Shown here one piece after another: positions 12,503-54,750 of a stretch of DNA of 64,000 nucleotides; the stretch's first letter is position 1, and each line of letters begins with the position of its first letter. This stretch comes from Escherichia coli (lineage in GTDB: Bacteria > Pseudomonadota > Gammaproteobacteria > Enterobacterales > Enterobacteriaceae). The notes below the pieces were generated by a model. That model was not told the DNA's origin and made no database searches. It worked only from the letters and a program-made list of their open reading frames with translations. The stretch lies in NCBI RefSeq assembly GCF_003334335.1, contig NZ_QOWQ01000011.1. The stretch is one strand, 5' to 3'. The position numbers and the translations under genes were made by a program.

Positions 12503-12540
12503 CAGGATAGCGAAGAAGACTGATGACAAACGGAAAACAG

Positions 12541-12637
12541 CCTGATGCGCTACGCTTATCAGGCCTACATTTTCTCCGCAATATATTGAATTTGCGCGGT
12601 TTGTAGGCCGGATAAGGCGTTCACGCCGCATCCGGCA
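12541..12637. repeat. Composite REP unit (two opposed REP palindromes around a shared spacer)
   Basis: CCTGATGCGCTACGCTTATCAGGCCTAC ... CAATATATTGAATTTGC ... GTAGGCCGGATAAGGCGTTCACGCCGCATCCGGCA. Confidence 0.85.
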
Positions 12638-12693
12638 TAAACAACGCGCACTTTGTCTTCAATAGGAAGCCGGAATTTTCCTTCGGATTTCCG

Positions 12694-29191: not shown

Positions 29192-29244
29192 TCTTTTATG
29201 CCGGGCTATGCCCGGCATCAGGCTGATGAACAAACGCAAAACTG

Positions 29245-29341
<97 letters not shown>

Positions 29342-29422
29342 ATTTCACAACAAGCACTTGTCAGCAATTTGAGAACACGGGAAAAAATTTATCTGTTTTA
29401 CCGCCCATAAGCCACCGAGACG

Positions 29423-34494: not shown

Positions 34495-34617
34495 CTGGAC
34501 GTAGCGTAAACGCCTGATCCGTCCAACGGTTCGGATTTTGTAGGCCTGATAAGACGCGGTAGCGTCGCATCAGGCATCTGTTGCCGGATGCGGCGTAAAC
34601 GCCTTATCCGTCCTACG
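34495..34617. repeat. REP cluster between ybiC and ybiJ
   Basis: Several REP palindromes (GTAGGCCTGATAAGACGCGGTAGCGTCGCATCAGGC, CCGGATGCGGCGTAAACGCCTTATCCG). Confidence 0.8.
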
Positions 34618-40213: not shown

Positions 40214-42435
40214 AGCGTTGGTTCCCCCGGCGGTAACGGTTCAGCCGGGGTCGCGCCCGGAGCAGGCAGCACCTGATAAGTCTGCACTGGCGCGCGAACG
40301 CCCGCCAGGTCGAAATGTTTTTTCACCTGGCTGTCGAGGGCAAAGCGTACCGTCCACTGTTTGAGTGGCAGCGTGGTGAACGAAACACGCAGTGTAAACG
40401 CGGTATTGCTTAAGCCGACAATCCCGGCAAAATTCGGTTCACCAATAATCAGCCCGCGAATTTCTTCGTTTTCCATTAATTCCGCTACCGCATCTTTCAG
40501 TGCCTGATTGGCTTTATCAGCATCTTCATGGCGATCAACATCATAATTTGCCACCACCGAACCAATGCCGCGGACAAAGTTAGCAAAGGTGGTTATCGAA
40601 GACCACGGAATGATGTGATACGCCCCGGTATCCTGTCGTACGCCCACGGAGCGAATCGACATCCGTTCCACTGTGCCGGTCAACGGCCCGATAGTCACCA
40701 AATCTCCAGTGTTCATGCCGTTTTCAAACTGAATAAATACCCCGGTGATAATATCTTTCACCAGCGTTTGCGAACCAAACGAGATAGCCAGACCTAATGC
40801 CCCGGCACCTGCCAGCAATGGCGCGATATTGACGCCGATTTCCGACAACACAATCATGATGGTGATGGTACTGATAATCACCGCCAGCGCGTTACGAAAC
40901 AGCGTAAGCAGGGTACGCGTGCGGGCGCTGGGTAGCGGGCGGCCATGAATATCCGAAGCCAGCCGGTTTTCGATCAAACTGGCGAGCACCGTCCAGCCAA
41001 CCGCCGAGAAGAAAAGAATGAGTGCGATACGGATCAGGATATCTACGGTTTTCTGCCCCGCGCCGTTTTGCAGCCAGTTCCAGAAATCGAACAATCCCCA
41101 TGCGCTCAACAGCAACATTACCGCCACGCAGACTGTCAGAATACGCGCCGTTTTCAGCGCCGCCGACAGCCAGCCATTCAACCGTTTTTGCAGCTCCGGA
41201 TAGTTACGCTGAGTATGTGGCGAGAGAGTGATGGTTTTCGCCAGCCAGCGGGAAAACATACCGGAAACAAACGCTGCGATACCAATAATCGCCAGGCTGC
41301 GCACCGTTGCACCCATCATAAATTTCAGGCTGTTGCCCGGATCGAACAACGAAAAGAAAAACAGCACGATAAAATAGGCGCTTGCCAGCCAGTGCCACAC
41401 CAGCGCAAAGGCGCGGATAAACAGGCTGAAAAAGGCCAGCGAATGCTCCGCGAAGTTGAGCAAATGCTGGGTAATCTCTTTTTTATTACGAAAGATCAGG
41501 TACAACGCCCAGACGGTCATGCACAGCATAATGATGACGTTCGCCAGCGCACCTATCTGTACATTCACCTGATTAGAGATAATCGGCACGGCCACAATCA
41601 GGCCATAACCTATCAAACTGCTTAACCAGCTCAGGCGACGACTCCAGTAACGGGCGCTCTCGTCCTGAATCGTGAACGGGCGCAGCTCCGCCACGTTTGG
41701 GCAAAAAATCAGGCGTAGTACGGCTTTGAAAAATTCAATGAGGGCAAAGGCGTTGAGAAACAAACTTTGTTGGAAAGCGATGGTGCGACTGCCTGCATTC
41801 AGGTTGTCGCTTAATACCTGGCCGACAAATAATGTCAGGGCCAGTAACAGCAGGTCGATAATAAACGCCCCGATAATCATCGCCGGAAGCTGCAACCAGT
41901 TGCTGCGCTCACGATTTTTTTGCCGCGCCCACTGACCCATTTTGCGATACAGCGGCAGTGCGCACAGGCGAATCAGCCAGTAAAAACCAAACACTAATAC
42001 CGCTAACATTGAAAAATGGGTCAGCGCATTGCTGAAGGTTTGTGGATTAAACGGCTTATGCGGGGAGCCGGTGATATTGCGATAAAGTTGCCCGAAGCGG
42101 GCGGAAAGGGCTTCACCATAATGGCGGCTGACTTCGGTGACCTTTTGCAGCACGGTTTGCTCTTCGACCAGCGTCGGCGGCACTATTTTTGGTACCGGTT
42201 CAGCAGGGGGCGTAGCGGCAACGGTGCGCAACTGGTCGATCAACTCTTTACGCGAGGTGTCATTATCCAGCACATCCGCCAGTGCGCCATAGGCCGCTTT
42301 TTTTTGTTCGATATCCGGTTCCGGGGCCGGTTCAGTCGTTGAGTCCGTTGTCGTTGTGGTTGTAACGCCGGGTATGGATACCGCGTGGGCAGGTGCGCCC
42401 AGCAGGCAGAAGAGGATGAACAGGATCCACCGCAT
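40210..42435 (-). CDS. ybiO: Mechanosensitive channel, MscS family
   Basis: Start set at [18 protein letters not shown] (741 aa), with signal peptide. Confidence 0.9.
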
Positions 42436-42586
42436 GACTCCTCCAGTGAGAAAATAGAGCAAAAAGATAAGTATAGATGCTGGAGGAGGGGCGATTTTAA
42501 ATGAGAGGAATCTGGTGTGCCTCCCTTTCGGGTGAAAGGGAGGAAGGGATATTAAGCAGGTTGCTGACAACGTGCGGGCTTTTTTG

Positions 42587-42688
42587 CCGGATGCGGCGTG
42601 AACGCCTTATCCGTCCTACAAGTTCATGCAATTTTAATAAGTTGCCAGATATCCTGTAGGCCTGATAAGCGTAGCGCATCAGGCAATG
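42587..42688. repeat. Composite REP unit, opposite orientation to 12541-12637
   Basis: CCGGATGCGGCGTGAACGCCTTATCCGTCCTAC ... GTAGGCCTGATAAGCGTAGCGCATCAGGC. Confidence 0.8.
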
Positions 42689-42695
42689 TGTCTTA

Positions 42696-43418
42696 TTAAG
42701 AGACGTGCTGCAAAAATTCCTGCAAGCGCTGGCTCGGCGGGTTCTTGATCAACACCTGCGGATTGCCATCTTCCGCAATCCGGCCTTTGTCGATAAAGAT
42801 CAGCCGCGAAGCTACTTTCTCGGCAAAACCGATTTCGTGGGTCACGATCACCATCGTCATCCCTTCTTCAGCCAGATCCTGCATAACCTTCAGCACTTCA
42901 TGGCGCAGTTCCGGGTCAAGAGCGGAAGTCGGTTCATCAAACAGCATCATTTTCGGCTTCACCGCCAGCGCGCGGGCAATCGCCACACGCTGCTGTTGAC
43001 CACCAGAAAGTTCGGAAGGGTAGTGATGTGCACGTTCTGCCAGACCGACTTTCGCCAGCAGCTCACGTGCCAGTTTTTCCGCCTCTTCTTTGTTCGCGCC
43101 ACGCACGCGTAGCGGGCCAAACATGACGTTTTCCAGCGCTGTCAGATGCGGGAAGAGGTAAAACTGCTGGAACACCATACCTGCTTCCTGGCGAATCAGG
43201 CGCTCGTCAACTTTCGGATCGTTAACCTTCAGGCCATCGACAATCAGATCGCCGGAGGTGATTTCTTCCAGTTTGTTGATGCAGCGCAGCAGGGTCGATT
43301 TACCGGAACCGGACGGCCCGATAATCACCACGACTTCGCCCTGGGCAATGTTCAAATCGATATTGTGCAGCACCTGGGTTGGGCCAAAGTGCTTGGAGAC
43401 GTTTTTAAATTCAATCAC
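42696..43418 (-). CDS. glnQ: Glutamine ABC transporter ATP-binding protein
   Basis: 240 aa, Walker [10 protein letters not shown]. Confidence 0.95.
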
Positions 43419-44074
43419 AGGATTTTCATCCTTCTTTCCAGACGACGCAGAATAAAGCTCAGCACCAGGGTAATAATCAGATAGAACACCGCCACGGCGC
43501 TCCAGATCTCAAGGGCGCGGAAGTTACCGGCAATAATTTCTTGCCCCTGACGGGTCAGTTCCGCCACGCCGATCACAATAAACAGCGAGGTGTCTTTAAT
43601 GCTGATGATCCACTGGTTACCCAGCGGCGGCAGCATACGACGCAGTGCCAGCGGTAAAATGACGTAGCGAATGGTTTCCCAACGTGAAAGACCGAGCGCC
43701 AGTCCTGCTTCACGAAAACCTTTGTGGATAGACAGCACCGCACCACGCGTGATTTCCGCAATATACGCGCCGGAGTTGATCATGATGGTGACCACCGCCG
43801 CAGTAAATGGGTCGATGCGTAAGTCGTTAAACGCCATCGGCAGGGCGAAATAAATAAACATCACCTGGACGACGATAGGTGTGCCGCGGATCACTTCAAT
43901 AAAGACCAGCGCGACGTGGTTGGCTATCCAACCTCCGAAGGTGCGTGCAAAACCTGCCAGCAATCCGATTACCAGACCGCCTGCCAGACCGAGGACCGAA
44001 ATCCACAGGGTCATTTTGGCACCTTCAATCAGAAGCGGAATGGCAGGCCAGATGGCACTCCAGTCAAACTGCAT
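43415..44074 (-). CDS. glnP: Glutamine ABC transporter permease
   Basis: 219 aa; overlaps the glnQ start. Confidence 0.95.
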
Positions 44075-44122
44075 ATGTTGTTCCTGTTACCGTGGTGTAA
44101 ATAATCAAATTCAGGGTAATTA

Positions 44123-44190
44123 ATGGCCCCGGAGCGGGTTTGCGCCCCTCACCCTAATCCTCTCCCCATAGGGGAGAGGGAACTGCCAGT
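44123..44190. repeat. GC-rich palindromic intergenic element between glnH and glnP
   Basis: GGCCCCGGAGCGGGTTTGCGCCCCTCACCCTAATCCTCTCCCCATAGGGGAGAGGG, with inverted repeat CCTCTCCCC/GGGGAGAGG. Confidence 0.5.
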
Positions 44191-44212
44191 GCGTTTTACA
44201 GGTGTAGCGTTA

Positions 44213-44974
<762 letters not shown>

Positions 44975-45011
44975 CTATCCACGGGACGATCCCCTGCGTG
45001 ACATTCACATA

Positions 45012-45029
45012 TATGAAAAAATCGTGCCA
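45012..45029 (-). promoter_or_regulatory. Sigma54-type promoter (glnHp2-like)
   Basis: The minus strand reads TGGCACGATTTTTTCAT (-24 GG / -12 region) about 60 bp upstream of the glnH start. Confidence 0.55.
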
Positions 45030-45362
45030 GTTTTGCAACTCCTTGATTTTTCGAGATGCGGCAAAAACGTGATGCACGATTTATAGGGCAATACCCTGAA
45101 GATGCACCATTCTGGGGCACCAATCTGGTGCGCTAAAATTGTGCACTCAACACAGTGATTATTTAGCGTAAAACCTGATGAAAAAACAATCTTTATGTAA
45201 CGATTGTGTGATGATGTGGATACAAAAAATTTACTTAATCAGCTGGAGATAGCAGATGGATGCACTAAATAAGTGCGTTGAGGTGGGCTGCAAAACAAAA
45301 CGGCCTCCTGTCAGGAAGCCGCTTTTATCGGGTACTAAAGTTCTGCACCATCAGCGATGGAT

Positions 45363-46010
<648 letters not shown>

Positions 46011-54510: not shown

Positions 54511-54571
54511 GTGATTATCCGTCACCCCGATACTGTCGGGGTGACGGCGGCTGATGACAAATGCAAAATAG

Positions 54572-54670
54572 CCTGATGCGCTACGCTTATCAGGCCTACG
54601 CAGTACCTGCAATATATTGAATCTGCAGGACTTTGTAGGCCGGATAAGGCGTTAACGCCGCATCAGGCAT
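54572..54670. repeat. Composite REP unit, third copy in the same orientation as 12541-12637
   Basis: Same architecture and spacer (CAATATATTGAATCTGC). Confidence 0.85.
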
Positions 54671-54750
54671 TAACAAAGCGCATTTGTCAGCAATCTGAGT
54701 AACGTCGAATCGATTTTCTTAATCCCACATCAATTCACTTCCATTAATTC

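Follow-up and report, generated by a model that had tools for sequence, protein, structure and literature searches.

For 30 years, the dispersed Escherichia coli repeat known as BoxC, PIT or TMECO has been examined as a potential triplex DNA and, to our knowledge, no function has been assigned to it. Other dispersed palindromes, the REP/BIME elements, are said to act as intercistronic mRNA stabilisers, for example in malE-malF and hisJ-hisQ (a role attributed to Newbury et al. 1987 and Stern et al. 1988).

The BoxC repeat received this name in the 1990s; the Maher laboratory then redescribed it under the name of "potential intrastrand triplex" (PIT) element, and it was later renamed TMECO (Holder 2015, PMC4666352); the literature on the family includes Bergler 1992, Bachellier (1990s), Hoyne & Maher 2000/2002 and Holder et al. 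2015 (PMC4666352). The published consensus is CCCTCNCCC-N3-6-GGGNGAGGG-N3-GGGNGAGGG, and the list for MG1655 has 23 copies (PMC4666352). These copies are found in all kinds of intergenic context, with no functional bias of the flanking genes and no orientation bias (PMC4666352). In reporter assays, PIT elements had neither promoter nor terminator activity and RNA polymerase was unaffected by them (Hoyne & Maher, via Holder 2015, PMC4666352).

We describe here a copy of this repeat, assigned to the family by sequence homology, which lies between glnH and glnP in the glutamine transport operon of E. coli and at which a published RNA 3' end has been mapped. We compare it to the catalogued BoxC copies, to the REP/BIME stabilisers and to intrinsic terminators, and we discuss what the hairpin may do in the operon.

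The glnH-glnP spacer

The window, that is the whole stretch of 64,000 nucleotides that was analysed, includes the ybiO-glnQ-glnP-glnH-dps-rhtA segment of E. coli K-12, in which all the genes are on the minus strand; a window position is the NC_000913.3 coordinate minus 803,045. The upstream cistron is glnH (44213..44959, minus strand), which codes for the periplasmic glutamine-binding protein; it was taken from the list of open reading frames and is a 100% match to the MG1655 glnH annotation. The downstream cistron is the permease gene glnP (43415..44074, minus strand), identified from the same list and from the MG1655 annotation. The 138-bp spacer that separates them (44075-44212) is 100% identical to that of MG1655. 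Its glnP-proximal part comprises the Shine-Dalgarno sequence of glnP (AGGAA, 44081..44085, minus strand), the target of the small RNA GlnZ immediately upstream of it (see below), and a linker, AUUAAUUACCCUGAAUUUGAUUAUUUAC (44097..44122, minus strand), which is AU-rich and single-stranded according to sequence and folding.

Two canonical REP elements in inverted orientation, which form a BIME, close the operon at 42580-42684, between glnQ and ybiO. An Rfam match to naRNA4 at 42555-42616 is below threshold (36 bits vs a gathering score of 59.5). On the dps side, a weak Rfam match to ctRNA_p42d (45290-45325, minus strand) overlaps the intrinsic terminator of dps, whose Term-seq end, 848340, is window position 45295; the match to this family is fortuitous and is due to the terminator hairpin.

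A perfect GC-rich hairpin that is not a REP element

The sequence-only reading of this DNA had pointed to a 9-bp GC-rich inverted repeat between glnH and glnP, and this description is exact: CCTCTCCCC (44159-44167) and GGGGAGAGG (44171-44179) are 100% complementary over 9 bp, and form a perfect stem with a 3-nt loop inside the spacer. Such structures are rare by chance. The 64-kb window has only three stems of 9 bp that are perfect, contain 7 or more G/C and enclose a loop of 3-8 nt, the expectation from 30 dinucleotide shuffles being 0.1 +/- 0.3, and the exact inverted-repeat pattern gave no match in 100 shuffles. The two other perfect GC-rich hairpins of the window (29198-29218 and 54521-54545) each adjoin a REP locus (29244-29347 and 54571-54673, respectively).

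The 21-nt RNA hairpin alone has a predicted dG of -16.8 kcal/mol, and the fold of the whole spacer, on the transcribed strand, has a z score of -2.5 relative to shuffled sequences. A stable structure, whose absence would have counted against the initial reading, is therefore present. The Rfam search (E <= 1) over 42000-46000 returned no covariance-model match in 44075-44212.

The palindrome had also been described as distinct from the REP family, and this distinction is borne out. A fuzzy search with the consensus GCC[G/T]GATGCG[G/A]CG...CTTATC[C/A]GGCCTAC found canonical REPs at five loci of the window (12540-12643, 29244-29347, 34540-34616, 42580-42684 and 54571-54673) and none within 44075-44212, so that the element does not belong to the REP family.

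A degenerate copy of the BoxC repeat

By sequence, we identify the palindrome of the spacer as a degenerate copy, with one substitution, of the type A form of BoxC/PIT/TMECO, a membership that the sequence-only reading had missed. A relaxed pattern matches a 36-nt core, CCCTCTCCCC-TAT-GGGGAGAGGA-TTA-GGGTGAGGGG, at 44145..44180 (minus strand). Read in the direction of transcription, the core begins with block 1, the pyrimidine arm CCCTCTCCCC (44171..44180), of which 44171-44179 pairs with block 2. It continues with loop 1 (44168..44170), then with block 2, the purine arm GGGGAGAGGA (44158..44167), then with loop 2 (44155..44157), whose sequence TTA defines type A and whose last base, 44155, is the published Term-seq RNA 3' end. 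The core is completed by block 3, GGGTGAGGGG (44145..44154), the third strand of a potential purine-motif triplex in single-stranded DNA, which is downstream of the mapped RNA 3' end. All these elements are on the minus strand.

The sensitive blastn search of 5,426 complete E. coli genomes with the 68-nt element returned between 1 and 29 places per genome, with a median of 15 and with 17 in MG1655; the element is therefore a dispersed repeat. The genome-wide search for further copies, which had been suggested as a check, thus gave a clear answer, and it did so with the element alone: megablast of the whole spacer retrieved the orthologous locus only. Copy number appears to depend on the lineage. 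JJ1887 (NZ_CP014316.1, taken as phylogroup B2) and similar strains, which carry a glnH-glnP allele of 94% identity, have 2-5 BLAST places, vs 13-29 in most others, which suggests that lineages differ widely in the number of BoxC copies.

The core matches the fabI-adjacent copy (L003:21205-21240; no. 9 of Table 1 in Holder) at 33 of 36 positions (E 4e-8). Ten further copies listed by Holder were retrieved, nine type A copies of MG1655 and one type B copy from a JM109 plasmid record; all ten were at the published coordinates or matched the listed sequence, and every one is intergenic. Over the core, the spacer copy is in register with 11 other copies. The similarity to catalogued copies is not confined to the hairpin: in the alignment of 12 copies with their flanks, the 5' flank CGCACTGGCAGTT (44181..44193, minus strand) shares ~10/14 positions with the family consensus, approximately GCGCACGGACGGTC. 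The spacer copy thus has the same features as the BoxC/PIT/TMECO family: a pyrimidine block, a loop, a purine block, TTA and a second purine block, with the same 5' flank, in an intergenic location and among many dispersed copies.

The family-conserved unit, made of the 13-nt 5' flank and the 36-nt core, is ~51 bp long (~44143-44193). Of the ~65 bp proposed at the outset (44123-44190), the stretch on the glnP side, 44123-44142, is not conserved among family copies. The GC-rich segment CGCAAACCCGCTCCGGGGCC... (44123..44144, minus strand), which the alignment of copies shows not to be conserved, may, speculatively, be the remnant of an older REP-like hairpin arm.

The spacer copy also differs from the catalogued ones. 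The last G of block 2 is replaced by A (window 44158), so that block 2 ends with GGA instead of GGG, and this is the single base by which the sequence departs from the strict consensus. The stem is free of internal mismatches, in contrast to the 13 copies described as "type A mm". By sequence, 9/10 Watson-Crick pairs and 9/10 canonical purine-motif triplets are possible. The canonical G-quadruplex motif of the consensus is lost; an RNA G-quadruplex was considered and rejected, as there are only three tracts of at least three G and no canonical G4 motif. Last, this copy is inside an operon and its G-rich strand is transcribed. Neither Table 1 of Holder 2015 (23 MG1655 copies) nor its flanking-gene supplement includes a copy near 847,1xx, because one base departs from the strict consensus. 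We therefore file the element as a degenerate member by descent, on the basis of homology and of the shared flank, rather than as a strict-pattern TMECO.

We note two observations on other copies. A second BoxC copy is found inside an ABC-transporter operon, between pstA and pstB (NC_000913.3 3908495-3908530; L014:696-730), in the orientation opposite to transcription; it lacks Term-seq data, probably owing to repression of pst under the growth conditions of that study. The other is an additional, uncatalogued BoxC-like sequence, GCATCGCCCCTCACCCCAATGGGGAGAGGGAG, partial and inverted, located just upstream of Holder copy no. 22, in the yjdP/phnP spacer (L016, ~616-650).

Conservation in E. coli and the hairpin slot in other species

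Of 5426 E. coli genomes, 5402 have the K-12-type spacer allele at a query coverage of at least 80%, so that the BoxC allele is practically fixed in the species. In an alignment of five representative E. coli alleles, the arms of the stem are invariant, with the exception of JNU, a strain in which the closing pair has one change. Loop 1 is hypervariable (TAT, as in K-12, TCT or GCC). Block 3 also varies: a B2 strain has A in place of a G, and O157:H7 has lost 1 nt. All five alleles have the terminal A of block 2 (44158), and the 70 nt proximal to glnP are invariant among them.

Outside E. coli proper, the spacer is occupied by other sequences. A scan for GlnP, with one genome per species, gave 80 loci and 78 usable spacers, and BoxC is found in the glnH-glnP spacer of none of these 78 other enterobacterial species, including E. 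albertii, E. whittamii and the atypical "E. coli" SCPM-O-B-8794. A stem scan over all lengths shows, however, that each of the 78 spacers has a strong single hairpin soon after the stop codon of glnH. The best hairpins have a mean dG of -20.6 kcal/mol (-14.9 for the weakest), against -12.5 +/- 4.1 for dinucleotide shuffles, and only 10 of 308 shuffles reached the dG of the real spacer from which they were derived. According to a crude classification, 39 of these hairpins are REP-like (GCCCGG...CCGGGC), 23 are of the GGGGCG...CGCCCC kind and 16 are of other kinds. Seventeen of the 23 are followed by T-rich tails and are terminator-like; Silvania, Kosakonia, Franconibacter and Atlantibacter are among the genera that appear to have this layout. 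Nearer to glnP, the block ...CCACGGTAACAGGAAC... is conserved from genus to genus.

The position after glnH is thus a conserved "hairpin slot", which in E. coli proper is filled by the BoxC copy. The presence of a strong hairpin after glnH in all 78 species fits a selected role in differential expression.

The case of "E. coli" SCPM-O-B-8794 (NZ_JAATUR010000020.1, L018:1407-1500), which is a GTDB species representative, deserves a comment. Its 94-bp spacer is of the REP type, like that of E. albertii. None of the 5,426 complete E. coli genomes has this allele, so that the strain probably belongs to a cryptic Escherichia lineage. In Intestinirhabdus alba (L047), the spacer contains an insertion and is 466 bp long, vs a median of 108 bp.

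We also considered that BoxC may have been inserted in the loop of an ancestral REP-like hairpin, as CACTGGCAG and GCTCCGGGGCC resemble the arms of the hairpins of E. albertii and SCPM-O-B-8794. This idea stays speculative, because the left "arm" fits the BoxC flank better (~10/14 vs 6/14 positions).

RNA 3' ends at BoxC copies

The 3' ends of E. coli MG1655 transcripts have been mapped by Term-seq in LB at OD 0.4, in LB at OD 2.0 and in M63 (Adams et al. 2021, PMC7815308, Supplementary file 1). A curated 3' end is listed at 847200, on the minus strand, in all three growth conditions (PMC7815308). The coordinates were verified, and this end corresponds to window position 44155, 4 nt past the last paired base of the hairpin and immediately before block 3; the RNA ends with ...CCCUCUCCCCUAUGGGGAGAGGAUUA-3'. 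The read counts at 847200 are 30,332 and 130,459, to be compared with 89,018 and 681,605 in the same tabs for the dps terminator at 848340 (PMC7815308). The mapping of the 3' ends of glnH transcripts, on which the initial reading could have failed, thus reveals a strong end at the hairpin in three of three conditions. All the 3'-end evidence discussed here comes from this single dataset (Adams 2021, PMC7815308), and Term-seq does not tell termination from processing. It is important to note that the strings in the supplementary file are 61 nt long with the 3' end at character 51 (50 + 1 + 10), a layout that was confirmed by the coordinates of two entries, while the legend describes 40 nt upstream and 10 downstream.

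RNA ends are also found at other copies of the repeat. In the lldD-trmL spacer, Holder copy no. 17 (NC_000913.3 3781028-3781065) coincides with the "primary" Term-seq end of lldD, at 3781065, again 4 nt past the stem; this copy is transcribed as its C-rich strand, in the orientation opposite to that of the glnH copy. Another degenerate BoxC-like copy, CCCTCTCACCCTAACCCTCTCCCCGGTGGGGCGAGGGG, at NC_000913.3 ~632,050-632,098 (plus strand), has a Term-seq end at 632098. It is absent from Table 1 of Holder 2015, and the strict pattern clearly misses some members of the family. That ends occur at BoxC copies in both orientations fits an effect of the RNA hairpin, and not that of a strand-specific triplex.

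On the other hand, the canonical G-rich core string is in no Term-seq entry of PMC7815308; other copies whose transcription would yield the G-rich sense, for instance the one downstream of adk, have no curated hairpin end. The alignment of flanks shows that this copy is followed by a separate terminator-like hairpin. It may be that, for copies of the adk type, the downstream terminator protects the transcripts that read through the BoxC copy, which would explain the missing ends.

Function of the hairpin

We consider it probable that the BoxC hairpin is a barrier to 3'->5' exonucleases which stabilises the glnH mRNA, an explanation that includes the identity of the element as a member of this family. 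The likeness to the REP/BIME stabilisers is close: in both cases a dispersed palindrome is located right after the binding-protein gene of an ABC-transporter operon, and 3' ends are found at the base of the hairpin. In structural terms, the element has the make-up of a REP-like stabiliser, being a stem-loop 3' of glnH at the base of which the transcript ends, and in many other species the slot truly holds a REP-like hairpin. The difference is in the sequence family: the REP consensus is matched at other places of the window, but not in this spacer.

The same 3' end could come from partial termination, if some rounds of transcription were ended by RNA polymerase at the BoxC hairpin, whether helped by a factor or not, which would directly lower glnPQ transcription. 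Like intrinsic terminators and attenuators, the element has a GC-rich stem-loop, located between two cistrons and closely followed by an RNA 3' end, here 4 nt after a strong hairpin, and in 17-23 of the 78 other species the slot has the classical attenuator/terminator layout, a GGGGCG..CGCCCC hairpin with a T-rich tail. However, the tail that follows the E. coli hairpin, AUUAGGGUGAGGGG (AUUAGGGUGA), has no U-tract, so that the element cannot be classified as an intrinsic terminator, and a scan for promoter and terminator consensus sequences found no promoter in the spacer and no terminator on its minus strand. The family was devoid of terminator activity and of effect on RNA polymerase in published assays (Hoyne & Maher, cited in PMC4666352), and no Rho-termination region is listed near 847xxx in the BCM dataset (PMC7815308). 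We regard partial termination as unlikely. Considering the missing U-tract and the earlier assays on the family, exonuclease stalling, not termination, is the likeliest origin of the end at 847200. The sequence-only reading had left the choice between differential mRNA stability and partial termination: the former agrees with the hairpin, the mapped 3' end and the conserved slot, while the latter is disfavoured by the tail and by the reporter assays.

Two further explanations deny the hairpin a selected role in the RNA. The BoxC copy may be a neutral or selfish repeat that landed in a permissive intergenic spot, in which case the 3' end would be incidental, with no selected function. The family copies show no functional or orientation bias (PMC4666352), their number varies widely from strain to strain (2 to 29 BLAST places), and the copy under study is degenerate, all of which is consistent with this idea. 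But the copy is nearly fixed in E. coli, with invariant stems bar the change in the closing pair in JNU, and the significantly strong hairpins in the slot of 78 of 78 other species suggest that a hairpin is maintained; in E. coli, which lacks the REP-type allele, it is BoxC that supplies it. A purely neutral repeat is therefore rather doubtful, in our opinion. Alternatively, the role could be at the level of DNA, if the G-rich strand formed an intrastrand purine-motif triplex, or other non-B DNA, that modulated replication, recombination or transcription at the locus. Oligonucleotides of the family do form stable triplexes in vitro, as seen by CD and NMR, and stall DNA polymerase (PMC4666352), and the glnH-glnP copy retains nine of the ten canonical triplets. 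On the contrary, in vivo DMS footprinting gave no evidence for a triplex and double-stranded DNA stays duplex, and purine-motif triplexes do not form in RNA (PMC4666352). Block 3, which is needed by the triplex alone, is what varies among E. coli alleles, and not the arms of the hairpin; the mapped RNA end is upstream of this block; and the locus is structurally stable (5402/5426 genomes), unlike the instability reported for TMECO loci. We find a role in DNA very improbable.

If the hairpin is an exonuclease barrier, the sequence of events could be the following. Full-length transcripts would be cut, or would start to decay, in the AU-rich linker, in the glnP leader targeted by GlnZ, or further downstream; the linker (44097..44122) is a candidate for the place where endonucleolytic decay of the glnPQ part would begin, by entry or by cleavage. 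The cut transcripts would then be trimmed back by 3'->5' exonucleases to the 9-bp GC hairpin (dG about -17 kcal/mol), and a stable mRNA containing only glnH and ending at window 44155 would accumulate, so that the binding protein would be made in excess of the membrane components. We infer that the hairpin raises the GlnH:GlnPQ ratio in this manner. A literature search for the rates of synthesis of GlnH, GlnP and GlnQ gave nothing usable.

The small RNA GlnZ represses glnP by pairing just upstream of the Shine-Dalgarno sequence (bioRxiv 10.1101/2022.04.01.486790; PMC9731577). Its target, CCACGGUAAC (44086..44095, minus strand), is immediately upstream of the glnP Shine-Dalgarno sequence, has a seed duplex dG of -18.4 and is conserved across genera. 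It was located by a seed-restricted duplex scan, since the duplex of full-length GlnZ with the spacer gives meaningless giant loops. The site is ~60 nt downstream of the mapped RNA end, and the BoxC repeat and the GlnZ site are separate modules. They may cooperate, GlnZ lowering glnPQ while the hairpin preserves glnH.

Significance

This is not a new kind of system. The kind of repeat is already known, and the glnH-glnP copy is a new degenerate member, absent from the list of Holder 2015, inside a well-studied operon. With it, the glnHPQ leader, whose regulation by GlnZ was known already, gains a structural module, and the result is useful for annotation and for the choice of controls.

The glnH copy and at least two other BoxC copies coincide with mapped RNA 3' ends, whichever strand is transcribed. 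These coincidences, and the fact that the slot after glnH is filled with a stable hairpin in all the enterobacterial species of the survey, point to a role at the level of RNA, as an exonuclease barrier, and to differential expression inside the operon. We put forward, tentatively and as a possibility that we do not yet favor, the broader idea that BoxC hairpins are a second, unrecognised class of elements, beside REP, that define and stabilise the 3' ends of mRNAs; at glnHPQ, BoxC would have taken the place of an ancestral hairpin, REP-like or of the attenuator kind, and the GlnH:GlnPQ ratio would be set jointly by BoxC and by the decay of the glnP leader that GlnZ triggers. If this were true, it would be the first physiological role for a triplex repeat of unknown function, which would act through RNA rather than through triplex DNA.
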